DNA of 45,035 nucleotides from Candidatus Levyibacteriota bacterium (GCA_016214555.1 JACROF010000014.1:1-45035); one strand, 5' to 3'; counted from the stretch's first letter, positions 5,874 through 24,913 are shown. Numbers and translations: made by a program. Notes: generated by a model not told the origin, from the sequence alone.

Positions 5874-7226
5874 ATGAAAATTACTTCAATGGATCAAGCG
5901 TATTCCTATCTTGATGATCATATTAGCATGGATGTTTTTAAGAGGTATGATGCTAATAAACATCTTAAGACACCACTTGAACGATTTGCTTATTTTTTAG
6001 AGCTTCTAGGAAATCCTCAAAAAAAATTTAAATCGATTCAAGTTACAGGTACTTCAGGAAAAGGCTCGACAGCGTATTATATTTCTCATTTATTGACAAC
6101 TGCTGGGTATAAAACAGGCTTTACTTTGTCTCCGCATTTACAAAAAATTCATGAGCGAATGCAGATTAATGGAAAAATGCCAACCAATCAGGAGTTTATC
6201 TCAGTACTCAATCAATTAGTGCCAGCTATTGCAAAGATGGCAAATGAGCCAATCGGTAAGCCTTCATATTTTGAGATTGTTGTCGCAATGGCATTTATGC
6301 ATTTTATGAATAATAAAGTAGATGTTGCTGTGGTTGAAGTTGGGCTAGAGGGTAAATTTGATGCAACAAATATACTTGATCCACTTGCTGTTATTTTAAC
6401 AAATGTCTCACTAGACCACACCGCTATTTTAGGTGAAACCGTAGAGCAAATTGCAAAAGAAGTTGTATATGTAATAAAAAAACAAGACAGAAATCCTATT
6501 GTTATTGCGGGGGAATTACAGCCAACTGTTTTTCCAATTGTTGAAAAAAAGTCGCGTGATGTTCATGCGAGATTATTTGTTTACAAAAAGAATTTTTCAG
6601 CAGAAATTGTAAAAAAGTCTTTTAATCAAACTGTATTTAATTTTAAAAATGATCAGAATACCATTGATGGTATTTCGCTATCCTTAAAAGGAGATTATCA
6701 AGTCGACAATGCTGCATTAGCCATTGAAGCAATCAAGCATCTTTCTGAATTTGATATTTCTCATGACATAATGAGACATGCATTCCAGACTGCTTTTTTT
6801 CCAGGAAGGTTTGAGGTTTTCACCTACAGCGGAAAAGTTGTTGTAATTGATGGTGCTCATAATGATGCTAAGATGCACGCATTTTTGGAAGCACTCGAAG
6901 AATATTTTCCAAAAGAAAAAAAATTGTTCGTTGTTGGTTTTAAGAAAGACAAGGATATCAAAACAATGATTACCAAAGTCGTAGACCATGCTGATGAACT
7001 TGTGTTAACTACTTTCCAGAAATTTACTGATCAAAGTAAAAGCTGTGGTCTCAATCCGCAGGAAATTGTCCAATTTTTAAAAAAAGGTGCTCAATACAGC
7101 ATCATTGATGATTCAAAGAGTGCTTTTTCTTATGCAATTAGCAAAGCTAAAAATGATGAAGTTATTGTTATCACAGGGTCGTTATACCTTATCGGTGAGA
7201 TGAGAGACTATCTTACTGAGAGGTAG
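5874..7226 (+). CDS. folC: Folylpolyglutamate/dihydrofolate synthase
   Basis: VTGTSGKGST, SPHL, EVGLEGKFDATN, DHTAILG, DGAHN, TGSLYLIGE. Confidence 0.95.
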   Translation: MKITSMDQAYSYLDDHISMDVFKRYDANKHLKTPLERFAYFLELLGNPQKKFKSIQVTGTSGKGSTAYYISHLLTTAGYKTGFTLSPHLQKIHERMQINGKMPTNQEFISVLNQLVPAIAKMANEPIGKPSYFEIVVAMAFMHFMNNKVDVAVVEVGLEGKFDATNILDPLAVILTNVSLDHTAILGETVEQIAKEVVYVIKKQDRNPIVIAGELQPTVFPIVEKKSRDVHARLFVYKKNFSAEIVKKSFNQTVFNFKNDQNTIDGISLSLKGDYQVDNAALAIEAIKHLSEFDISHDIMRHAFQTAFFPGRFEVFTYSGKVVVIDGAHNDAKMHAFLEALEEYFPKEKKLFVVGFKKDKDIKTMITKVVDHADELVLTTFQKFTDQSKSCGLNPQEIVQFLKKGAQYSIIDDSKSAFSYAISKAKNDEVIVITGSLYLIGEMRDYLTER

Positions 7227-7860
7227 TTGTCACTGTTGGATTTTTGAGAATAATCGTTGTTCCAGTTGTTTTGATCAGAACATTTTGTCCACGAGCTTCA
7301 CCACTAACTAAAGATTTTTCAAGAAGGCTTATTTCTGTTTTGGGATTTGTACTTGTTAAAAGAGGAGTAAATGTCATGGTAGCAACAATACCGGTTCCTG
7401 ATCGTGATTCATTGGATGAGTTAGGTACGAGCGCATAGGTAACTCGTCCTGAGTTTGGATTTACTCCGCCAATTGGGAGAACGCTGGGATTGGTAAAAAA
7501 CGTTCCTGGTTTTAAGGTAACATTTGTTATTGCTTTGGGATCATAGGCGATTTCAAGCTGAACAGATCTTACTTCATTTCCTCCTGTATCGATTGCTATA
7601 TCAAGAGTTGATGAAGTTGATCCTGAAACGCTCAAAGGATTGGGCGTCAAAGAGAGGGATGTGCGCCCAGGCACTAATGGAGTTGGAGTTGGCGTAGGGT
7701 CAGTTGTCGATATTTGCTGTGGTTTTTGAGGCTTTGTGAGAATAGCAACCATCACTAGGATAATAGTAAGTATCAAAAGGACAATAATAAGACCAAGAGT
7801 TTTTCGAGACATAGTAGTATGTCCATTATAAGTGTCTTTTTGTTGTGTGCGCAAGTCCAT
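7213..7860 (-). CDS. Membrane-anchored cohesin-domain protein
   Basis: N-terminal TM helix, PTPTPTP linker, cohesin-like IDTGGNEVRSVQLEIAYDP...SGTGIVATMTF; start overlaps upstream stop (TAATG); alternative ATG at 7812. Confidence 0.8.
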   Translation of the reverse strand: MDLRTQQKDTYNGHTTMSRKTLGLIIVLLILTIILVMVAILTKPQKPQQISTTDPTPTPTPLVPGRTSLSLTPNPLSVSGSTSSTLDIAIDTGGNEVRSVQLEIAYDPKAITNVTLKPGTFFTNPSVLPIGGVNPNSGRVTYALVPNSSNESRSGTGIVATMTFTPLLTSTNPKTEISLLEKSLVSGEARGQNVLIKTTGTTIILKNPTVTTTSQ

Positions 7861-10800
7861 TAGCTATCTCCTTTAATAACTGAAATCTCACGAAGGAAGA
7901 GATTGTAATCATAGAAGTCTACAGCTCCGTCATCATTGAGATCTGCTTTTTTAGACAGATCTGCCTCACAATGGTTACCAACGATGGATTCGTCACAGCC
8001 TGTAACAATGTCGTAATCTAAAAGATTGATAACTCCATTACCATCAATATCTCCGACCACCAGATAGGTAGCCTCAGTAACGGGAATAATAGTATCTTTC
8101 TCCACAATAACAATTGCATTTTTAAGTTTTTTCTTAGGATGTTGGTCAACAAGAACTTTTATGCTATATGTTCCTGCTGCAACTTTTTTATCAAGGGTAA
8201 TAGTGCCTGTAAAGAGGTCGGGGCCATCTTGGTAGGAGATGTTTCCTTGACCAATTGCAATCACATTACTATCATTAGTTGCTTCAGTTAGCTCAACTTT
8301 CATCAACCTCTCTCGTCTTTTTGGATTGATATTTCCAACTGTATTGGGAGCAACGCTATCTCCTGCTTTTCCAATTCCATCAAGAAAGATTGAGCTAAAC
8401 GACAGGGATGTTTTGTCAGTTGGGATGGGTGAAGGACTGACAGATGGACTTGGGCTTGGTGACTCTGAAGGAGCTGTGCTTGGTTCAGTTGATGGGCTAA
8501 TAGATGGAGATATGACAGGGGATGGAGATACACTTGGCGATGGAGAAATAGTTGTTGGTGAGCATGTTGGATCCTGTACCCATCCTTCAGGCAAGCAGGA
8601 GGTTGGAAATGTTTGACAAGCGTTGGTACTACTATTTCTAGCATCAGTAATTACCTGAAGGCAAATTGGCGATGGGCTAGGCGTTATTGTTGAAGCAAGA
8701 GTAAAGTCAACAGATGCAGTTTGGTTGGTATTAAAGGTGACCTTTACGTTATTTGCTGTTGTAAGCGTTGTGTTAGTTGGCGCTGTTGTTGAGACGGTGT
8801 ACTCTTTTTGTGTAAGTGATGGGATCACATATGAGCCATCTGCTGCAACCTTTACTGTCTTGTGTTGATTATTCGTATTAGTCGCAGTGATATTCATCTT
8901 ACCGCCAGTATATTTTTGTTTACTTGATTTTGTCTTGAGAAATACCTGTCCTTTGATGGAATAAATAACTTGCGTAGATGGCTTGGGGCTTGGAGCCGAT
9001 GAGGGAGTTTTGGATGGAGTAAGCGATGGTGTTTTTGAAGGTGCATTGCTTACAGGGGGAGTAATTGGTTTACTTGTGTCTTTTAAGAGGAAGTTTACTG
9101 GCTTTGTTCCAATGTTTGTTGCTTCAACTACCACTTGTTGTTCAGAGGATCCTTGGAGAGTAAATCCAGATGGGATCGTCTGAAGAGCGACTGTATAAGT
9201 TCCAGGCTTTATATCCTTAAATGAATATCTCCCATTTGATGCTCCTGATTGTGCTGTTTTTGTTGTGAGAGAAGTCCCGGGACCAGTAATTCTTACTGTT
9301 GCTCCATTAAATTTAGCTCCACCATCTCCATCACCACTTTCAGGATTCTCATCAATTTTCCCATTTGCATTTTTATCATAGAAAAGTGCTCCCGATACTG
9401 TTTTGGAGGTTGCTGTTGGTGATGGATAAGGAGCAATGCCGAAATTTCTTGTGATACTTTTAGTTGCTCCGCCAACCTGACCGCCTGGCCAATCAGTTGT
9501 TCCTTGATAGCCGCTTGGGACTGCTGGTCTTACTGTGTAGTCTCCAGGAGCGAGATTGGAAAATTGATAGTTGCCCTTTAAATCTGTGGTTGTAGATTTA
9601 GTTGCAGTTACGCCAAGATTAATTTTAATTCCGCCAAAAGGTTTTTCGTCTGCATCCTGCTTGCCATTCCTATTTTCATCACGGTATGCTACTCCCTTAA
9701 TGGTGTTGTCATTTTTTCCTGCATTTGAGAGTCGAATAGTAAAATTAACGATCTCTGATGATTTTGGACTTGAAGGAGGATTGACAAGGGAAACAGGATT
9801 TTTTGATGTAACTTCATATCCTGATGGTGGTTCAATTTTTATTGAATAATTTCCCGGAGATGTAAGATTTTTAAATGAGTAGCCTCCGGTAGTACTTGTA
9901 AAAGTTGTTGCAGCTTTATCAATACCTAAAATAACTTTGACGTTTTGCCCAGCGTATGGACGTGTTCCTGTTGCAGTGCTCACCGATACAGTCCCGCCAA
10001 TCATAGCGGTATTGACCGGAGAAGGCGTGGTGGAGTTGGTTAGGATAACAACATAGCTCGCATTGGATGTTCCCGTTTTAATCTCCTTTTTGCCCCTGTA
10101 AGGAGACTTGCTTGCAGAGATAGTAAGATTGCTATTTGCACTGACGGGCAAGGTAAGATTGCCTGATGAGTCTGTTCTACCATTTGGACAGGTTGCTTTT
10201 CCTGTGCCTGTAACTACAGTTGGACAAACAGTAACATACACGTCTCCAGCTGGTGAAGACACATTTGATTGATATTGTGTTTTAATTTGTATTTTAATAC
10301 CTGTTGGAGTATTTGGTTTTAGTGCGAACCTTATTGGATCCATGCCATTTACTACATCTACTGTTCTAGGCTCCGTTTGGTAATTATCAGCCTTTGCTGT
10401 CATTTTTACCGTATCATCAAGATGAAGGCTTGCCGCGACACAGCCTGTTATGGGAGCATCGACTGTTCCTCCAGCTGAATTAACCATGGTGACTATGCCT
10501 TTTAGGTCCTTTTTGGTATTCGCATCAGTGAGGCACACTGTCACTTTGGTAAGTGGTCCTAGTTTCTTGCCACAATTTACACCATTTGGGCATTCGACTG
10601 TGTAATTATAAACATAACTTGTCCCCTTTGAAGCATTAAGGGAAGCAGGGAAGTCTGATTTGGTCAGCACATACCCATCGGATGGTTTGTAAATTGCAGT
10701 GTATGTACCATCTGATACGTTGGTAAATTTAAGAAACCCTTTAGTGTCAGTTGTTAGCTTGGTTCCCGATGCGCCATTTATTCCTTGGAGGGTAACGGTT

Positions 10801-12170
10801 TGATTTGGTATTCCAGTTCCAAATTTGTCCTTGATGGTAAATTGAACAGAATTTTTTCCAGCAACTGGCGAAGGCGTGGTCTTTGCCTTTAATAAGTACG
10901 TGATCGTAAATGGAGCGTGCGCTGACTTTTCAAGATCTAAAATACGATCTCTAGGATTCTCAGAAAGGAGAGTGTATCCTGGAGGAATTACTGCAAAATT
11001 TATTTTGTACGACCCTGCCTTGAGACCAGAGATGCTTACTTCTCCTTTTGGCCCACAATTCAATGATTTGGTGCTAAATCCCGCTCCAGAGGTTGTTGGT
11101 GTAACATCAAAGCGACAACCATCTTTTGTGTAGGGTATGTCAGTTTCTTTTCCATTTTGCGTTGTTCGCTCTTTGGTAGCAATAGTCATGGTCCAGGTAT
11201 AGGTTGCGGGAGTTGATCTTAGAAGAAAAGTTATCGATTTTGATGTAGTTGTTTTTTCAATATCAACAGGGAGTCCAATATATTTAGATGTAAATCCTGG
11301 AGGGGGTGTATTAAGATGAGCAGTATATCTTCCTGGTTCAACAATGTTTGAAAAACTAAAAGCTCCACCTGAATTAGTTGTTGTTTTTTTTGAAAATTTA
11401 TTTTCCCCAGTAAGACCAATTGAAACTCCGTTAAATTCTGCTGATCCAGATTCACCCGAATCGGCTACTCCATTGCTATTTTTATCAAGTATAAGCTGTC
11501 CTTTTATTGTTTTTGCTACTACTGGCGGAGTATTAGGGGTGAGATAGAAGGTTTTTGTCTGATTTGCTGCTGTGAGTGCGACACCAACTTGTGCTGCTGA
11601 CACATATCCATTAGCCGATGCAGAAATGAAAAGCGTTTGATTTCTTAAAAAAGTATAGCCTGCACACCCATCACTGCCTGTTGAGACAGTGCTATAGTTT
11701 TTAATCGTTACATTTCCATTAATAGGCCCTCCTCCGCTTCTATAGGTACAAATTGTAAGATTGGTGTACAGTGTCGGTGTTGGTGTTGGAGCTGAGGGAG
11801 TGTTGGCCTGAAGGGTTATGGTAGTGCTTACTGCGCTTGTCCCTACAGTTACAAAACGAGAGGTGTTTCTAAATCCCGATTTATTCGCTGTGATTGTATA
11901 CGAATTGTTTCCTGGGACAATAAAAGCAAAACCAGCGCTCGTTGAGTATTGTGAGCTTGAGTAAGCAGAGCCGCTGATAGAGACAGTAGCTCCTGAGATG
12001 TTTCCTCCACGTATATCCAGAATTCTTCCTGTAACATAGACACTCGTTGCAGCAAGGACGTTTTTTTGGCTGACTGATGGCTTTGGTAGAGCAATCGGTA
12101 GTATCATACCGATGGTTGCTGCAATGAGAACAATGGTTGAAATAAATCCGCTGGCAGAAAGGCGTTTCAT
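7860..12170 (-). CDS. Large secreted multi-beta-sandwich protein (carboxypeptidase-regulatory-like and SdrD-B-like repeats) with C-terminal X-module and dockerin
   Basis: Signal/TM N-terminus, three DxNxNG Ca-loop repeats, Pro/Ser/Thr linkers, paired EF-hand-like GDIDGNGVINLLDY and ADLNDDGAVDFYDY. Confidence 0.85.
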   Translation of the reverse strand: MKRLSASGFISTIVLIAATIGMILPIALPKPSVSQKNVLAATSVYVTGRILDIRGGNISGATVSISGSAYSSSQYSTSAGFAFIVPGNNSYTITANKSGFRNTSRFVTVGTSAVSTTITLQANTPSAPTPTPTLYTNLTICTYRSGGGPINGNVTIKNYSTVSTGSDGCAGYTFLRNQTLFISASANGYVSAAQVGVALTAANQTKTFYLTPNTPPVVAKTIKGQLILDKNSNGVADSGESGSAEFNGVSIGLTGENKFSKKTTTNSGGAFSFSNIVEPGRYTAHLNTPPPGFTSKYIGLPVDIEKTTTSKSITFLLRSTPATYTWTMTIATKERTTQNGKETDIPYTKDGCRFDVTPTTSGAGFSTKSLNCGPKGEVSISGLKAGSYKINFAVIPPGYTLLSENPRDRILDLEKSAHAPFTITYLLKAKTTPSPVAGKNSVQFTIKDKFGTGIPNQTVTLQGINGASGTKLTTDTKGFLKFTNVSDGTYTAIYKPSDGYVLTKSDFPASLNASKGTSYVYNYTVECPNGVNCGKKLGPLTKVTVCLTDANTKKDLKGIVTMVNSAGGTVDAPITGCVAASLHLDDTVKMTAKADNYQTEPRTVDVVNGMDPIRFALKPNTPTGIKIQIKTQYQSNVSSPAGDVYVTVCPTVVTGTGKATCPNGRTDSSGNLTLPVSANSNLTISASKSPYRGKKEIKTGTSNASYVVILTNSTTPSPVNTAMIGGTVSVSTATGTRPYAGQNVKVILGIDKAATTFTSTTGGYSFKNLTSPGNYSIKIEPPSGYEVTSKNPVSLVNPPSSPKSSEIVNFTIRLSNAGKNDNTIKGVAYRDENRNGKQDADEKPFGGIKINLGVTATKSTTTDLKGNYQFSNLAPGDYTVRPAVPSGYQGTTDWPGGQVGGATKSITRNFGIAPYPSPTATSKTVSGALFYDKNANGKIDENPESGDGDGGAKFNGATVRITGPGTSLTTKTAQSGASNGRYSFKDIKPGTYTVALQTIPSGFTLQGSSEQQVVVEATNIGTKPVNFLLKDTSKPITPPVSNAPSKTPSLTPSKTPSSAPSPKPSTQVIYSIKGQVFLKTKSSKQKYTGGKMNITATNTNNQHKTVKVAADGSYVIPSLTQKEYTVSTTAPTNTTLTTANNVKVTFNTNQTASVDFTLASTITPSPSPICLQVITDARNSSTNACQTFPTSCLPEGWVQDPTCSPTTISPSPSVSPSPVISPSISPSTEPSTAPSESPSPSPSVSPSPIPTDKTSLSFSSIFLDGIGKAGDSVAPNTVGNINPKRRERLMKVELTEATNDSNVIAIGQGNISYQDGPDLFTGTITLDKKVAAGTYSIKVLVDQHPKKKLKNAIVIVEKDTIIPVTEATYLVVGDIDGNGVINLLDYDIVTGCDESIVGNHCEADLSKKADLNDDGAVDFYDYNLFLREISVIKGDS

Positions 12171-12197
12171 AGTATTACTGTATCGTAGTTGAGACAG

Positions 12198-14168
12198 TTA
12201 TTCAACAGGATCAATGCTGTCTCCATGCAAAACTGACATTTCTCTTAGAAATAAGTTGATATCAAATTGATTAACCTTCCCATCGTCGTTGATGTCTGAT
12301 CGTAATTTTTCATCATTACTGCATGATACTGGAGCGAGATAATCTGAATAACAGCCCCTCATGAGGTCATAGTCCAGGATGTTGAGGGAGTCATCTCGAT
12401 TAACATCACCTGTTGTCAGACGCAGGGTTGGCAAGTCAACATTTTTTTGAGTTGTGATAGATGTTATGGGAGCAACTCTTTTTGTTAGATAGCCGGGGAC
12501 AGAAATAAAAATTGAGTATTTTCCTGTTGGGAAACTTGGCCCAATATCTCTATTCACTCCAAGTGTTGTACCATTTGCTGAGAAGGTATTTTTGCTTGTA
12601 TCATCAAGAACAATCTTATTATTTTCATCATAAATTCGTATTCTTACTTCTTTTTGAGGATGAAGCGGTTTTTTGTTGCTAACAGCATTGTTGTTGGGAT
12701 TAGCATTGTCACCTGCTGCTCCAAGCCCATCAAGGAGGAGGGAGATGTTAAGCGATGCTCGATTTTGCTTGTACTCTGCAAGCGTTGAGCATGTTGATGA
12801 TTGATATCCATTTTGGCTTGCAAAAGTAAATACGACTTCCCCCTCTGTGTCTTTTGATGCCTCACTCATAGTTACCTTAAAACGTGCTATGCCACTGGCG
12901 TCAGTCGTCGATGAAGACTTATCAACCCGTAAGAAATGAGCACCTGTTTTGATCTGTGCAGAGATAGGGAGGTTTGGGAGAGTGTTTCCCTGACTATCTT
13001 TAAGAATTGTTTGTATCTCAAAAGGAAAGGTTGTATTAAAAAGTGATCTGGGTGAGCAGACAAGGGTAGTTGCCAATGGTTGTCTTTGTACGCCAAAAGA
13101 TTTATCGCTTAGTGTGTCACTGTTACGAAGATCAACTGCAATAGGGTTGGTATTTGGTGGTGAGGTTTGTTCCCATCCTGGTTGCATGCCTAATTTGAGT
13201 TGGTATGAACCATCGCAGATATTCTCAAATGTGTAATTTCCGTTCGTATCAGTTACCGTAGAATTTTGTTGTGTGGTGTTTTGAAAAAGATCGATTTTCC
13301 AGCCTGACAGCTTGTTTTCATTTGTGTCAAAAGATGCATTTTTATTTGTATCCTGATAAACAAATCCTGCAATAACGCCCTTTCCAAGAGTCTGGGAAAT
13401 TTGGGAATAAATTCCTTGGAGGTCAGTTGCTGTTGGTGCATAATAATAGTTGCCATTTGTTTTTGATGCAATATTAAAAAGAAAGGCTTCATGTATGTCT
13501 TGCTTAGCTCCAAGTCCAATTGTCGTAGTTGAAATGTTATGTATCGTGTAGCCACTTAAGACGCTGTCCATGGCCTTTTGTTCTGCAGTTGCTTGAGTGA
13601 CTGAAGTTGTCGCGCCATCAACCCAATTAGCTTTCCCATCTGTTAAGAGAATGGCGATATTTGAGAGATCTGACCTTTGCCTTGAGGATGTTAATTCTGC
13701 AATAGCTTTTTTAAGTCCGCACTCAATACATGTCCAGCCATTTTGATCGTTACCGGGTGCAATCGCATCAATTTTTTTTGAAATGATGTCCATATCGTCA
13801 GTGAGTTGGGATTGTAAAATAGTATTTTGGGTGTCTGAGAAAGAGACGATAGCAAGTCTATGTTTTTTTTCAATAAGAAGTTCAGCATTTTTTTCCTTTA
13901 GAATCTCAGCAAAATTTTTTGCTGCTCTTTTTGCTCTTTCAAATCTGCTTACCGTATCAGTAGTACTACTTTGTTTATTCATGCTATTTGATGTATCGAT
14001 GATAAGGACAATATCTGTTCCTGTTTCGCTACATACTGGAGTAGAGGTTGCGGCATTTTGTTCTAGATTTTGCTGTTTTTGCACAAGACTAAGTGTCAGT
14101 GGGAGACCACCCAAAACAAGGAGAAGAGCAAGAAGTCCGAGTATTTTTGTGTTAGTTTTTTGCCACAT
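12198..14168 (-). CDS. Secreted vWA-domain adhesin-like protein with SdrD-B, Ig-like domain and C-terminal X-module and dockerin
   Basis: MIDAS DTSNS...T...LLTDG; QDTNKN Ca loop; GDVNRDDSLNILDY and SDINDDGKVNQFDI. Confidence 0.87.
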   Translation of the reverse strand: MWQKTNTKILGLLALLLVLGGLPLTLSLVQKQQNLEQNAATSTPVCSETGTDIVLIIDTSNSMNKQSSTTDTVSRFERAKRAAKNFAEILKEKNAELLIEKKHRLAIVSFSDTQNTILQSQLTDDMDIISKKIDAIAPGNDQNGWTCIECGLKKAIAELTSSRQRSDLSNIAILLTDGKANWVDGATTSVTQATAEQKAMDSVLSGYTIHNISTTTIGLGAKQDIHEAFLFNIASKTNGNYYYAPTATDLQGIYSQISQTLGKGVIAGFVYQDTNKNASFDTNENKLSGWKIDLFQNTTQQNSTVTDTNGNYTFENICDGSYQLKLGMQPGWEQTSPPNTNPIAVDLRNSDTLSDKSFGVQRQPLATTLVCSPRSLFNTTFPFEIQTILKDSQGNTLPNLPISAQIKTGAHFLRVDKSSSTTDASGIARFKVTMSEASKDTEGEVVFTFASQNGYQSSTCSTLAEYKQNRASLNISLLLDGLGAAGDNANPNNNAVSNKKPLHPQKEVRIRIYDENNKIVLDDTSKNTFSANGTTLGVNRDIGPSFPTGKYSIFISVPGYLTKRVAPITSITTQKNVDLPTLRLTTGDVNRDDSLNILDYDLMRGCYSDYLAPVSCSNDEKLRSDINDDGKVNQFDINLFLREMSVLHGDSIDPVE

Positions 14169-14240
14169 ATAAAATAAGCGCTATACGCCTTATTTAAAGC
14201 GTAGTTGAGTAAAAAGAGCTTGTCAATATGGACGAAATGA

Positions 14241-14310
14241 AAAAACTAAAAGGCAAAAATTAAAGTTAGGGTACCTTTATTTTTGAACTTTTATTTTTAA
14301 CTTTTGACTT
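14241..14310. repeat. Degenerate heptamer-periodic A-rich/T-rich inverted arms
   Basis: aaaactaaaaggcaaaaattaaag ... ctttatttttgaacttttatttttaacttttgac. Confidence 0.55.
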
Positions 14311-14337
14311 ACATTAAATTGTGTTATACTCTTCTGC

Positions 14338-14913
14338 ATGGTTTTGTCTGATGGTGATATAAAGAAAGCTCTTAAAAGTGGGAGAATTGTCATCAAACCC
14401 CTGCCAGATTTCAAAACCCAACTCGGCAGTTGTTCTATAGACCTTCGCCTTGGAAATTCGTTTAGAGTTTTTGAGCACAGTAAGCATCCATTTATCGATC
14501 CCTCAAAAAAAGATTTTTCCAATGAAATTACACGAGAAATTAGAGTAAAAAATGGAGATGATTTTATCATGCAGCCAGGTGATTTTGTCCTAGCCGTTAC
14601 AAAAGAAAGAGTAACAATTCCTTCAGATCTTATGGGTAGACTTGAAGGGAGATCTTCCCTTGGAAGACTGGGTATCGTTGTGCATTCCACTGCATCAATT
14701 TTTGATCCAGGATGGGATGGGAACCCCGTTTTGGAGTTAGGAAATTTGGGGCGCATGGCAGTTGCGCTTAAAGTTGGCATGAGGATTTGCGCAATGGCAT
14801 TTGAGGAGCTATCAAGTCCTTCAGAAACCCCCTATACTGATAAGAAATTCGCGAAATATAAATTTCAAACAGCTGCACTTGAAAGCAGAATTCATCAGGA
14901 AAAAGAGCTATGA
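14338..14913 (+). CDS. dcd: dCTP deaminase
   Basis: SIDLRLG, EGRSSLGRLG, HSTASIFDPGWDG, LELGN, GMRIC. Confidence 0.95.
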   Translation: MVLSDGDIKKALKSGRIVIKPLPDFKTQLGSCSIDLRLGNSFRVFEHSKHPFIDPSKKDFSNEITREIRVKNGDDFIMQPGDFVLAVTKERVTIPSDLMGRLEGRSSLGRLGIVVHSTASIFDPGWDGNPVLELGNLGRMAVALKVGMRICAMAFEELSSPSETPYTDKKFAKYKFQTAALESRIHQEKEL

Positions 14914-21209: not shown

Positions 21210-23990
21210 TCATGGTGCGACTTCTTGCCAGATGTAGTTGGGGACTCTCATGATATCGGGAGCGTTGAGGACAAAGTCTGGCCTTTCTTTGATCATAAAT
21301 GATGGGAAGTTGACATTGCTCGTGCAGAGATCACGATTGTTGACAAAATCACCTACGTCATCACTGTTGGCGTCAACAACGATTGCTCCCTGGACGTTAA
21401 GTTGGAGATCTGGCACTTTAGGTGTTGCTGAACAGTCAGCGCTAGATCCTGTATTAAATGCTCTATCAGTGCTGAAGAACCCTTCTATATTTGCACTCCC
21501 TACACTTGGTGCTGGGCATGTTGCTGTTCTTCCGAGCGTTGGACTGACGTTGATATCTCCTGACGAGGAGACAAAAAGCGTTGAGGTGGTTGGGACATGA
21601 ATATTTCCATTAATAGTGACAGTCCCGTCGATGAGGATAACAATATCGCGATTCGCTGCGAGAGTAGCGCCGCCAAAGGTAACGTTACCCGTTGTGACGT
21701 AGACTCCATTGGTAAGTATTGAAAGATTGCAGCTGTTAACATTGCATACATTAGAAAGTGGTGTAGTCGTTATTTTAGATTGTGAAACAACAGATTGCAT
21801 GTATGTGTAGGATGTTTTGATGCTGCCATTGCTTGGGCTAAAGACTTCCGGATACGCACTTCCGCCAACAATCCAATTTTTCGGTGTTCCTGCATTGCCA
21901 AACCAAAAGTCGCCTGGCGCATCACCTGTGAATGCTACGCCATTAGTTGATGAGCCATTGGGGAGAAGCCCAAAAGCGCCAGTGCATAAGCTATCAGGAT
22001 CAGGAGGGATGGGGTTATCAACGCCATTATCAAACCTTACATCAAAACCATATGACTGCCACCATGGTTGACCACCACGGATCGCAAAATTTAATTCTGT
22101 GAGATTACCACTTGCACATGTTCCTCCAGGGGTTGGAGAGGCAGGGCTGCAGCCGGATCCAACAGTTGCGTTAAATGAAGCAGGGGGACCATTTTGAGGG
22201 TGGATCATAACATAGCCTGTTGGTAAATTGGGATACTCAACGGTATAATTTCCAGATATTAGCCCTTCAACAAGATATGAACCGTCGCTGTTGTTGGTGA
22301 CAACAGGCGTTGGAGCATTTGCTGGAAGGTCATCGATAGTAATGCCAGGATTGGCTGGATAGTTAATTTCACTGCCATCTTTAACTCCATTTTCTGCTCC
22401 ATCATCAACGAAAACATTCCCTGATGCAGTATATTTTGGAAAGAATCTGAGGTTTTGTCCGGTAAGATCAGACCTAGCGTCAAAGTCTGCTGATCTTGGT
22501 TGGGTTCCAAGGGGATTGTAGTCATTTCCAGGATTGGCACTTATGTTGTAGGTTCCTGGTTCCAAGACTGGGGAGGTGTAGTTGCCACTAGAGTTGGTAG
22601 TGGCTGTTTTTGTTTCGGGTCCAGTGAATGTGACTGTCACTCCAGAGAGAGGCATATCAACTGAGCTGTTGTATGATGAGCTCTTGTCCATATCAGCATA
22701 AATTCTTCCCTGGATGGTATACCCTACGCTGTACTCAACCGTTACTTGATTATTGCCTGTTTTAGTGTCGACAATATTTCTATCAAAATTAAGAAAGACA
22801 CGAGCTGTATAAGTCCCTTTTTGTGAGAGATCCCATGCTTGTTGATTAATAAATCTATCGCATCTGAGTCCTGGGTTTGGCTTACAGTAGTATTCAGCGC
22901 TAACCCCAGCATTAAATTCGCCGTTTCTTAGGAGAACATCGGTATCTCCAACAGTATCAGGGTCAACGGTATTTGGCTCATTTTTATAAAACCACGTATA
23001 GGTATATTGATCATTTAAGTCTTTTGAAAGAGCTGTCGCATCACCAACATTTTCAATGGTAACTTTTGGAAATATATTTTCACTTATGGCAAATGTTGTT
23101 CGTGTCTGACCACTTCCATTGGTAAGCTCAAAATTTGTTACTCCGATATCTGGGTTGCCAATGACATAGCGAAATTGAGCCTGGTTGTTTGTATAGTTTT
23201 GATCTTCGTCGGGATAGGCATTGAGAGGATCGACAAAGATAAGCGCTGTTCGGGGTTCGTCTGTTCCTCCTGATGCGCTAAAAGAATTTGATCCGATATA
23301 TCTATCGGTATTTGTTGCACCAGGGCGTGAGTCATAAGTCATGGTGGTTCCTGGAGAAAAATCACTGCTATTGTCTTTGATATAGCTGGAGGTGAGGCCG
23401 CTTCGAGGGCTTGTGAAGAGTGTGTCTTGTGTTTGGTAGAGATTGGCATAGACATCGGTACCATCAGGATCCAATTCTCCGATATTTTTAATCTGAGCGT
23501 ACCAATAGATGTCCTCATCTGGTTGGAAATTAAAACTTCTCCCTCCTGTATCTTTGAGATAGAAATTGGTGACCTCAAAATCAGCAGGTGCTGGATAGGG
23601 ATATGGGTAGGGGTAAGGATATGGATAGGGATATGGGTAGGGGTAAGGATATGGATAGATTGGCCCACCCCCGCCACCCCCAGGGAGATCGCTGCAACTG
23701 CCTCCAACGACACAATCGCCATGTCCTATGCATGGATTTCCGCAGGTAAATTGACTTACCGTATCACAGCGTATAATGGAAATGTTTCCTTCTCCCGAGC
23801 CACACGAGTCAGTGCAGACACACTCAATTGGTCCTCCTGGAAGGCAGTTTGTAGGCGTGCATGTTCTTTGCGTGTAATCGCATGAAACACTCACACCAGC
23901 GCATTGCGCATTAGTTAATTGGGGAAATATAGCAGTGAGAAGGCTAAGCAATAAAAGAGCAATCGGCAGGAGGAGCTTTTGTGAGTACAT
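21210..23990 (-). CDS. Large secreted protein: Cys-rich N-terminus, Gly6-(YP)11 linker, two CARDB-like domains, SdrD-B-like domains, beta-helix-like C-terminus
   Basis: Signal peptide; ADFEVTNF...IKNIG...NNQ and PDIGVTNF...IENVG...NNQ; ADMDKS loop; GNVT/GTVTINGNI repeats. Confidence 0.75.
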   Translation of the reverse strand: MYSQKLLLPIALLLLSLLTAIFPQLTNAQCAGVSVSCDYTQRTCTPTNCLPGGPIECVCTDSCGSGEGNISIIRCDTVSQFTCGNPCIGHGDCVVGGSCSDLPGGGGGGPIYPYPYPYPYPYPYPYPYPYPYPAPADFEVTNFYLKDTGGRSFNFQPDEDIYWYAQIKNIGELDPDGTDVYANLYQTQDTLFTSPRSGLTSSYIKDNSSDFSPGTTMTYDSRPGATNTDRYIGSNSFSASGGTDEPRTALIFVDPLNAYPDEDQNYTNNQAQFRYVIGNPDIGVTNFELTNGSGQTRTTFAISENIFPKVTIENVGDATALSKDLNDQYTYTWFYKNEPNTVDPDTVGDTDVLLRNGEFNAGVSAEYYCKPNPGLRCDRFINQQAWDLSQKGTYTARVFLNFDRNIVDTKTGNNQVTVEYSVGYTIQGRIYADMDKSSSYNSSVDMPLSGVTVTFTGPETKTATTNSSGNYTSPVLEPGTYNISANPGNDYNPLGTQPRSADFDARSDLTGQNLRFFPKYTASGNVFVDDGAENGVKDGSEINYPANPGITIDDLPANAPTPVVTNNSDGSYLVEGLISGNYTVEYPNLPTGYVMIHPQNGPPASFNATVGSGCSPASPTPGGTCASGNLTELNFAIRGGQPWWQSYGFDVRFDNGVDNPIPPDPDSLCTGAFGLLPNGSSTNGVAFTGDAPGDFWFGNAGTPKNWIVGGSAYPEVFSPSNGSIKTSYTYMQSVVSQSKITTTPLSNVCNVNSCNLSILTNGVYVTTGNVTFGGATLAANRDIVILIDGTVTINGNIHVPTTSTLFVSSSGDINVSPTLGRTATCPAPSVGSANIEGFFSTDRAFNTGSSADCSATPKVPDLQLNVQGAIVVDANSDDVGDFVNNRDLCTSNVNFPSFMIKERPDFVLNAPDIMRVPNYIWQEVAP
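23593..23658 (-). repeat. (Tyr-Pro)11 coding repeat containing an exact 30-bp tandem duplication
   Basis: ggatagggatatgggtaggggtaaggatat x2 plus ggatag. Confidence 0.95.
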
Positions 23991-23992
23991 GC

Positions 23993-24913
23993 TTAGCTGA
24001 CATTAAAAATGTGATTTGCCACGTTTGTTCCTTCAGAATTTAGTGTAAAAAATAACTTTCTAAATTCAGCCATTCTACCATCTGGATCAACAAGATATTT
24101 TTGTTCTTGCTCAGCTGTTATGCTTTTTTGCTCTTGTAGCTCTGGGACGCTCATGATTGTTAATGCAAATCCTAAAAACTCAGAGGCTTGAAATTTATGC
24201 ATTTGGTATTGTTCTCTATCACCGCTATAGTCTCCATTTCCTGGTACATCATAATGGTTGGTCCAAAATTCTAATCTTGTTTCTCCATTGCCAGAAGTAA
24301 ATCCTTCGGAGTGGCCAGAGTATTTACTATATAGCGCATGACCTGGTAAGCCTAACCATACAAGCCTTACGGGATCAGCTGGATCTATGGTAATTTCTTC
24401 AGGGACAGGCTCGGTACCTTTTCGGCCTTTTGCTCTAAATTTGACATTGTCTCCAGCCTCAAGTTTGGTTACCCATTCATCAAATGTTACATCTGCTCTG
24501 CTTTCAGGCTTATTGGATTGCCAGCCTCGATACATGCCAAGTCTGATAGCATTGTTGAGTCTATCAACTGCATCTGGAAATCCTGTTTCAGGGTCTGTAT
24601 TAAGGTCTATTGCATGCATCCAATTGGTAGGAGCTTCAAAAAGGTTTTTCTCAATACATAGTGTCACGTTGCCAAAAGGACTATTTTCATTTTCATATCC
24701 AATTTCATAACCATATTGTTCTTTTTGTACCTCAGGGGTTGGGAGAGGGACGTAGGTAGGTGTTGGCTCTGCCTGTTTTGCTGAGGCAATATCCGGAAGT
24801 TTTCCAAAGACGGCTGCGCTTACCACTGCTGCTCCAGCGGTTTTTAGCAAGTCGCGCCTACTTAGCCTTGTGTCTAGTATATTTGCAACGTTTTCTTTCA
24901 TATCTGCAGGCAT
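23993..24913 (-). CDS. Hypothetical exported protein with twin-arginine-like signal
   Basis: LSRRDLLK, hydrophobic stretch, ASA, then PTPT linker. Confidence 0.75.
   Translation of the reverse strand: MPADMKENVANILDTRLSRRDLLKTAGAAVVSAAVFGKLPDIASAKQAEPTPTYVPLPTPEVQKEQYGYEIGYENENSPFGNVTLCIEKNLFEAPTNWMHAIDLNTDPETGFPDAVDRLNNAIRLGMYRGWQSNKPESRADVTFDEWVTKLEAGDNVKFRAKGRKGTEPVPEEITIDPADPVRLVWLGLPGHALYSKYSGHSEGFTSGNGETRLEFWTNHYDVPGNGDYSGDREQYQMHKFQASEFLGFALTIMSVPELQEQKSITAEQEQKYLVDPDGRMAEFRKLFFTLNSEGTNVANHIFNVS

Follow-up and report, generated by a model that had tools for sequence, protein, structure and literature searches.

The window analysed here, a stretch of 45,035 nucleotides (nt) from Candidatus Levyibacteriota bacterium (GCA_016214555.1 JACROF010000014.1:1-45035), contains three consecutive minus-strand genes that probably form a non-cellulosomal cohesin-dockerin surface-anchoring cassette. 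Two large proteins, P0001 and P0002, end in a module pair composed of an X module and a dockerin (X-Doc, the plug), and a third, small protein, P0003, carries a single cohesin behind an N-terminal membrane helix (the socket). A preliminary description of this DNA, made from the sequence alone, had placed a non-cellulosomal plug-and-socket operon at 7213..14168, and the three open reading frames (ORFs) obtained by ORF calling spanned exactly this interval. The proposed type of system was borne out by the domain families, the cohesin fold, a model of the complex and a gene order that is kept among relatives. The mechanism type is therefore supported; the host attachment and the cross-linking proposed as its purpose are conjectural.

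The three genes are tightly packed (Table 1). P0001 and P0002 are separated by 27 nt, and the ATG of P0003 at 7860 shares one base with the TAA of P0002. A start equivalent to Met17 of P0003 was observed in 25 of 26 aligned homologues, the 16-residue extension being present only in the closest one; P0003 may therefore begin at 7812, 45 nt past the P0002 stop, and comprise 199 amino acids (aa). The tight packing of the three genes holds with either start. The translational coupling of the cohesin gene in the preliminary description is thus plausible from the sequence but not certain, and its membrane helix and single cohesin were recovered. Promoter and terminator consensus scans of positions 6900-14500 returned 16 matches against 17.1 in shuffled sequence and 6 against 6.1, respectively, and were uninformative on the operon boundaries.

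The Pfam scan assigned the Cohesin family (PF00963) to residues 92-194 of P0003 with 35.8 bits against a cut-off of 24.1, and 36.5 bits were obtained in the six-frame scan. The AlphaFold2 (AF2) model, built with 27 sequences, had a predicted local distance difference test score (pLDDT) of 87.1 and placed residues 19-41 in a helix and residues 67-206 in a beta-sandwich with a core above 90, joined by a Pro/Thr linker of low confidence. When this model was searched against the PDB, every chain listed, at ranks 1-50, was a cohesin (best E-value 6e-9), including that of Archaeoglobus fulgidus (2xdh) and the cohesin-like structures of Clostridium perfringens (2jh2 and 2vo8). Type I cohesins fitted the target with template modelling (TM) scores of 0.72-0.80 and type II cohesins with 0.5-0.6. 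Type II cohesins have an extra helix and flaps. The sandwich of the P0003 model contained no helix and does not take the type II form.

Dockerin calcium loops are marked by Asp or Asn at loop positions 1, 3, 5 and 12. Two such repeats were found in the dockerins of both P0001 and P0002, as read in the sequences and in alignments to solved dockerins. Across 22 aligned sequences, residues D118, D129, D155 and D166 (dyad numbering) were invariant, and a Cys pair between the loops was kept in at least 90%. The P0001 dockerin matched Dockerin_1 (PF00404) at residues 587-639 with 28.2 bits (cut-off 22.9; 33.8 bits in the six-frame scan), and P0002 scored 16.9 and 19.2 bits (six-frame), under the same cut-off. 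The last ~180 residues of the two proteins were homologous over their full length (31% identity, E-value 1e-23, BLASTP), and this homology assigns the P0002 C-terminus to the module family of the P0001 dyad despite the low Pfam score. The X-module hidden Markov model (HMM) matched P0002 with an E-value of 1.9e-28, a value obtained with the P0002 sequence in the training alignment.

The conserved unit extends beyond the dockerin. A database search with residues 470-656 of P0001 retrieved 21 proteins including P0001 itself, with coverage of 93-100% (93-97% for the 20 others). The N-terminal parts of these proteins varied, consisting of vWA and SdrD_B domains, a PF00149 phosphoesterase, a cohesin or unannotated sequence. 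The AF2 model of the 186-residue P0001 X-Doc (pLDDT 83.1, predicted TM score 0.80) displayed a beta-sandwich with three helices behind it. The 10 PDB structures ranked highest by Foldseek were without exception type II X-module-dockerin dyads, from C. thermocellum and A. cellulolyticus, with TM scores of 0.5-0.6 over ~180 aligned columns, and a plain sequence search aligned the P0001 dyad to the X-Doc of CipA, starting within the X module. The plug is thus modelled as an X-module-dockerin dyad of ~180 residues, with the X module packed directly N-terminal to the dockerin. The preliminary description had recognised paired calcium-binding repeats at the ends of both large proteins. The loops were confirmed in both, and only P0001 exceeded the Pfam cut-off. 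It had missed the X module, and the bare dockerin that it proposed as the plug has to be replaced by the dyad.

The fit between plug and socket was then examined by complex prediction, a check suggested with the preliminary description, using the cohesin of P0003 (residues 60-215), the P0001 X-Doc and two calcium ions in three runs and three controls. The complex scored 0.70 (runs 0.70, 0.83 and 0.54) and the best of the three controls 0.02. The runs shared at least 83% of their contacts, and the pLDDT of the partners was at least 79. In a calibration on 157 solved complexes and 215 mismatched pairs, 116 of the former and 2 of the latter pass at this mark; these counts hold only roughly with our own alignments and calcium ions riding along. 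The confident interface comprised cohesin residues 98-101, 128-131, 141-149 and 184-193, and dyad residues 120-137, 145-150 and 171-177, which correspond to the dockerin helices. In the family alignments, Q101 and L128 of the cohesin and L125, I127, D129, Y130, C136 and C146 of the dyad were conserved interface residues. A contact between the P0001 dockerin and the P0003 cohesin is supported in silico only.

The metal-ion-dependent adhesion site (MIDAS) of vWA domains is formed by DxSxS, Thr and Asp residues. In P0001, all of these positions aligned to their counterparts in the solved VWA chain 4rck, and the Pfam VWA match reached 63.5 bits (cut-off 23.8), in agreement with the intact MIDAS of the preliminary description. 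The stalks of SdrD_B and Ig-like modules that it had listed were found in part as described: SdrD_B was present in both large proteins (45.5 bits and over its cut-off in P0001), Big_1 fell below and MG4 just over their cut-offs in P0001, and P0002 presented a beta-sandwich run with five SdrD_B, seven CarboxypepD_reg and four SpaA stretches. NCBIfam returned only partial matches far below threshold, to SdrD/SdrC and to BatA-type and chelatase-type VWA proteins. No glycoside hydrolase, carbohydrate-binding module (CBM) or other catalytic or carbohydrate-active enzyme (CAZyme) domain was found in P0001, P0002 or P0003 in the Pfam scan, again as first described.

The N-termini of P0001 and P0002 consist of a basic and then a hydrophobic segment, which we read as probable export signals. 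A Gln-rich stretch ending in Ala-Ala (alignment consensus LxQxQQxxRxRAA) follows the hydrophobic segment in P0001, in P0002 and in a cohesin-like protein encoded elsewhere in the genome (described below), and is absent from P0003. This stretch may mark a signal-peptidase site in this lineage.

The conservation of the cassette was analysed in 41 genomes, namely its own and those of 40 relatives sharing its genus, family or order. Homologues of P0003 were detected in 39, Pfam Cohesin matches in 39 (36 over the cut-off) and Dockerin_1 matches in 34 (32 over the cut-off). For 31 of the 79 P0003-like matches, in 28 of the 41 genomes, a Pfam dockerin on the same strand ended no more than 300 bp upstream. 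Pfam undercounts this adjacency, as the family HMMs located an X-Doc upstream of the cohesin in three genomes (G003, G011 and G017) for which Pfam gave none within 300 bp. Among the 12 best-match loci (L004-L015, where L004 is the own locus, covered by ORF calling and HMMs, and L005-L015 were scanned with the family HMMs), 10 had an X-Doc ORF directly upstream of the cohesin, and at one of these two cohesins stood in tandem after it. X-Doc ORFs were also present in 20 of 20 loci picked for Pfam adjacency, a set that is not unbiased because it was chosen for that very feature; these loci presented one to four X-Doc genes and then a terminal membrane-cohesin gene of ~200 aa. In two of these 20 loci (L024 and L037), the cohesin ORF was absent from the ATG-only ORF calls and was placed there by the P0003 homologue search. 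A P0003 scan of genome contigs confirmed only three loci, and whole-genome searches were far more productive. Since related genomes are not independent, no statistical weight is placed on the co-occurrence. In a wider sample of the phylum (101 genomes, Pfam), about a dozen genomes had a cohesin and a dockerin on one strand, separated by a few kb at most, and the pair is concentrated in this order and not phylum-universal at Pfam sensitivity.

The preliminary description had proposed that the cargo is interchangeable, and this was observed among the relatives, where the dyad is joined to vWA heads, stalks, subtilases, CARDB proteins and cohesin fusions. Pfam (E-value at most 1e-4) was run on 31 upstream proteins, 29 of which had an X-Doc and/or dockerin match with our own HMMs. 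These 29 comprised seven with vWA and SdrD_B, two with cohesin and vWA, six with cohesin and no vWA (by Pfam and/or the cohesin HMM), three with beta-sandwich stalks only, two with Peptidase_S8, one with CARDB and eight with no Pfam family beyond dockerin. The remaining two lacked an X-Doc; one had no Pfam match and the other, at locus L036, was an apiosidase/GH5-like hydrolase. The vWA-SdrD_B-X-Doc arrangement was the most recurrent cargo architecture (7 of 31 scanned). The socket gene ends the operons of relatives that carry other cargo, and the cassette would therefore be a general non-covalent display system.

Two further architectures were noted in these operons. Subtilases ending in an X-Doc (Peptidase_S8, 197 and 209 bits) were located directly upstream of the membrane cohesin at L029:657-3035 (genome G033) and L030:637-3096 (genome G030), which suggests that enzymes are also displayed by this system and argues for a general display device. 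At five loci (L023, L027, L032, L036 and L037), proteins with an N-terminal membrane segment, a cohesin and a C-terminal X-Doc, some with a vWA domain in between, were encoded upstream of the terminal membrane cohesin. Such cohesin-X-Doc fusions could, judging from their domain order, chain head-to-tail or serve as adaptors.

A genome census, likewise suggested with the preliminary description, was performed on the own genome (G000; 1,049,725 bases in 17 contigs, 96% complete). In six-frame Pfam scans of the whole genome, Cohesin was matched exactly once and Dockerin_1 twice, each time within this operon. The family HMMs detected no further X-Doc ORF in the genome; both own dyads were in their training set, so that their own scores arise by construction. 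These HMMs added one weaker cohesin-like ORF elsewhere. Three sortase matches were found outside this operon, and no SLH domain was matched in the genome.

The additional cohesin-like ORF is a 394-aa frame outside the window, at G000:C12:141690-142871 on the minus strand (family HMM E-value 6e-8; P0003 match E-value 3.4e-7). Its N-terminal membrane segment and cohesin-like domain are accompanied by a PT linker, a PKD-like stretch and a hydrophobic tail at the C-terminus, with no dockerin, and a class of similar proteins of ~370-440 aa recurs in most relatives.

The proposed mechanism presumes calcium dependence, surface location, export and signal cleavage. All three proteins would be exported by the Sec pathway. 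P0003 would be kept in the cytoplasmic membrane by its long uncleaved N-terminal hydrophobic helix, and the short Pro/Thr linker would hold its single cohesin outside the cell. P0001 and P0002 would be exported with cleavage of their signals, the former as a MIDAS-bearing vWA head on a short stalk and the latter as a very long beta-sandwich stalk. After export, the calcium-loaded dockerin would plug into the membrane cohesin, leaving the C-terminus at the membrane and directing the vWA head or the ~1400-residue stalk outward, a polarity like that of sortase-anchored Sdr adhesins with the X-Doc replacing LPXTG. A single socket would thus serve two alternative plugs, which may compete or coexist on different copies. 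In its widest form, this proposal would make the X-Doc/membrane-cohesin pair the general sortase-independent surface-building route of the order, in which any dyad-bearing exported protein is hung on the socket, fusions chain into multi-tier or fibre-like assemblies and the vWA member acts as a host-contact organ on a mechanically strong bond; we consider this extension rather doubtful.

Several observations weigh against the anchoring mechanism. Among the relatives, 25 of the 79 P0003-like matches lay in longer frames or elsewhere with no dockerin nearby, and no X-Doc was found within the 1.5 kb fetched at two of the best-match loci (L011 and L014). Of the 28 genomes with a cohesin and the 29 with a dockerin in the phylum sample, only 16 had both, leaving 12 with a cohesin only and 13 with a dockerin only. 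X-module residues, unlike in type II complexes, were absent from the confident interface of the model, in which unlisted residues are to be read as uncertain and not as excluded. Because cohesin-dockerin complexes have already been solved, the score of the model may mirror likeness to them and not binding. Furthermore, the model took in the P0001 dyad alone, and the P0002 dockerin lies below the Pfam cut-off. If the N-terminal segments of P0001 and P0002 were not cleaved, both ends of these proteins would be tethered in the membrane.

An alternative is that the cohesin and the dockerins are unpaired, being co-regulated envelope neighbours whose dockerins bind, for example, glycans or the second cohesin-like protein, or stabilise the C-terminus with calcium. 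Non-cellulosomal modules often have no obvious partner, as the cohesin-only and dockerin-only genomes of the phylum sample illustrate, a second cohesin-like ORF exists in this genome, and gene adjacency alone is weak evidence of binding. We nevertheless judge the absence of pairing to be unlikely, as at least 28 of the 41 genomes repeat the order of an X-Doc followed, tens of bases later, by a membrane cohesin, the complex model outscored its controls and the predicted interface residues are conserved. Far more improbable is that the cassette is a pared-down cellulosome that breaks down polysaccharides. In groundwater metaproteomes, Bell et al. interpreted the cohesin and dockerin proteins expressed by Candidatus Shapirobacterales, a member of the Microgenomates, as pointing to a cellulosome, according to the accessible text (10.1101/2021.08.21.457207), and an apiosidase/GH5-like gene occurs in one relative's operon. 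That hydrolase, however, has no X-Doc, and P0001, P0002 and P0003 are devoid of glycoside hydrolase, CBM and other CAZyme domains in Pfam. A cellulosome is defined, in the available part of the source, by a scaffoldin with two or more cohesins (PMC13487519). As this genome encodes two dockerin proteins and one single-cohesin protein, it has no multi-cohesin scaffoldin and no dockerin-fused hydrolase; the system is therefore not a cellulosome, since a scaffoldin with at least two cohesins is missing and both dockerin proteins lack a hydrolase domain. For this genome, the cellulosome reading is largely refuted.

A different question is what the same docking would be for. One answer is host attachment, with the vWA head and the stalk acting as adhesins that fasten an epibiont, the episymbiont lifestyle of the organism being our assumption. 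The metal-site residues of the vWA domain are intact and the stalk is Sdr-like, the genome is of 1.05 Mb at about 96% completeness, and vWA-SdrD_B-X-Doc is the commonest cargo among the relatives' proteins. In Southlakia epibionticum, a patescibacterium in cultivation, a dockerin-domain envelope protein is among the essential genes and has been speculated to target host glycans (PMC10633639), and the CttA X-Doc:ScaE bond of R. flavefaciens is mechanically very stable and serves cell adhesion (PMC4266597), as far as the accessible portions of these papers state. The same plug, however, bears subtilases and unannotated proteins in relatives, so that the cassette is not adhesin-specific, and vWA domains have many non-adhesive roles, the NCBIfam partial matches being of BatA and chelatase type. 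Host attachment as the purpose is thus possible, somewhat short of an even chance. At the level of the single domain, a role of the MIDAS vWA head in host or particle attachment is plausible from its sequence, and this head may bind a host or a substrate.

Table 1. Features of the three-gene cassette; positions are counted from the first nucleotide of the window.
Feature	Position	Strand	Basis
Gene 1, P0001, 656 aa: hydrophobic export segment (putative), vWA, SdrD_B, Big_1/MG4-like, X module, dockerin	12198..14168	(-)	ORF, translation, Pfam
vWA domain of P0001, aa 52-255	13404..14015	(-)	Pfam VWA 63.5 bits; alignment to 4rck
Stalk of P0001: SdrD_B aa 266-346 and Big_1/MG4-like aa 377-445	12834..13373	(-)	Pfam
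X module of P0001, aa 471-578, beta-sandwich directly before dockerin	12435..12758	(-)	Conserved unit, AF2, Foldseek
Dockerin of P0001, aa 580-656, with a conserved Cys pair between its two calcium-loop repeats	12201..12431	(-)	Pfam, PDB dockerin alignments, predicted interface
Gene 2, P0002, 1436 aa: export segment (putative), long SdrD_B/CarboxypepD_reg/SpaA-type beta-sandwich run, PT/PS-rich linkers, X module, dockerin	7860..12170	(-)	ORF, translation, Pfam
X module of P0002, aa ~1254-1357	8100..8411	(-)	BLASTP to P0001 C-terminus; X-module HMM
Dockerin of P0002, aa ~1365-1436	7863..8078	(-)	Sub-cut-off Pfam, homology to P0001 dockerin, both calcium loops readable
Shine-Dalgarno-like AAAGGAG, 7 nt before the P0003 ATG at 7860	7868..7874	(-)	Read from sequence
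Gene 3, P0003, single cohesin with membrane anchor, 215 aa (199 aa if the start is Met17 at 7812)	7213..7860	(-)	ORF, Pfam, homologue alignment
N-terminal membrane helix of P0003, aa 19-41, then Pro/Thr-rich linker	7738..7806	(-)	AF2 pLDDT ~94; sequence
Cohesin beta-sandwich of P0003, aa ~61-215	7216..7680	(-)	AF2 core pLDDT >90; fold search

The genes that flank the cassette have housekeeping functions: on one side lies a convergent Mur ligase, and on the other dcd, tmk, thyA and folA run divergently. Along the window the base composition stays even, and an origin from a mobile element or prophage was therefore set aside. The DNA of the window was found to occur in four DNA runs of one groundwater metagenome study, one of which may be its source, and no RNA run was listed among them. 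At the window start, positions 1-391 are the 3' end of a 16S rRNA gene, and tRNA genes are located at 822-895 and 1475-1547; tRNA-Ile(GAT) lies ~1.1 kb downstream of the 16S rRNA gene with tRNA-Cys between them, an unusually long spacer for an rRNA operon. A further secreted protein, of 926 aa, is encoded at 21210-23990 on the minus strand. Its N-terminus is rich in Cys, and it contains consecutive Pro-Tyr repeats and SdrD_B modules but no dockerin. The adjacent 306-aa protein (23993-24913, minus strand) has no Pfam match, and its N-terminus, SRRDLLK followed by a hydrophobic stretch, resembles a twin-arginine export signal.

Surface building and cell contact are largely unknown in Patescibacteria, few of which are cultivable, and the cassette provides a concrete hypothesis for how their largest surface proteins are held, one that is easily tested with two small recombinant modules. 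It further calls for caution, as cohesin and dockerin matches in such genomes should not be taken to indicate cellulose degradation. As a naturally orthogonal plug and socket whose membrane anchor is compact, the pair might also find use in surface display.

Cohesin and/or dockerin domains with a suspected surface role have been reported in other ultra-small bacteria. As far as the available text of the two reports goes, Southlakia epibionticum has an essential dockerin-domain envelope protein (PMC10633639), and cohesin and dockerin proteins are expressed in Candidatus Shapirobacterales, where they were read as a cellulosome (10.1101/2021.08.21.457207). The same accessible text contains no membrane-cohesin/X-Doc pair and nothing on its conservation or range of cargo. 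More generally, no description of this gene pair was found in the accessible literature on cohesins and dockerins in the Candidate Phyla Radiation (CPR)/Patescibacteria, whose supplements (e.g. Dataset S6, bioRxiv) may contain protein lists of relevance. Cohesin and dockerin modules outside cellulosomes form an established category with mostly non-catalytic parent proteins, according to the part of the source that is available (PMC13487519). In contrast to these modules, among them 2xdh, 2jh2 and 2vo8, socket and plug in the present case, a membrane-anchored cohesin and an X-Doc, are encoded by a fixed and conserved pair of genes.

The SdrC/SdrD adhesins, which are microbial surface components recognizing adhesive matrix molecules (MSCRAMMs), are similar in having an N-terminal head, an SdrD_B stalk and a C-terminal anchoring device. 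They differ from the proteins described here, which have an X-Doc C-terminus in place of LPXTG and a vWA head in place of the IgG-like A domain. The partial NCBIfam matches to SdrD and SdrC (50 and 31.8 bits against cut-offs of 2500 and 1700) fall far outside MSCRAMM membership. The best fold matches of the dyad were to the type II X-Docs of C. thermocellum and A. cellulolyticus (2b59, 5k39, 5m0y, 5g5d, 4wi0, 4u3s, 3kcp and 4fl4), and both systems would serve cell-surface anchoring. The TM scores were, however, only 0.5-0.6 and the identity 14-18%, the predicted interface contains no X-module contact, and type II anchors carry SLH domains, which were not matched in this genome. As the partner cohesin looks type I-like, the cassette does not strictly belong to type II.

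The closest described analogue appears to be ScaE of Ruminococcus flavefaciens with its partners CttA and ScaB. In the sca cluster, as described in the accessible portions of two papers, the sortase-anchored single cohesin ScaE binds the X-Doc dyads of ScaB and of the adhesion protein CttA (PMC5301203, PMC4266597). Both arrangements, the present one as predicted, comprise in one gene cluster a surface single cohesin for two proteins ending in an X-Doc, one of them a non-enzymatic adhesion protein in R. flavefaciens. The two differ in phylum, and the ScaE and CttA structures were not among the top fold matches. ScaE is linked through sortase and LPXTG, whereas P0003 has an N-terminal membrane helix. 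The R. flavefaciens partners carry CBMs or form an enzyme-integrating scaffoldin, whereas a vWA head and a beta-sandwich stalk are found here, with no enzymes or multi-cohesin scaffoldins. The X-Doc anchoring principle of the Firmicutes cellulosomes would accordingly be extended by this cassette to a membrane-helix anchor and to cargo of the adhesin type.

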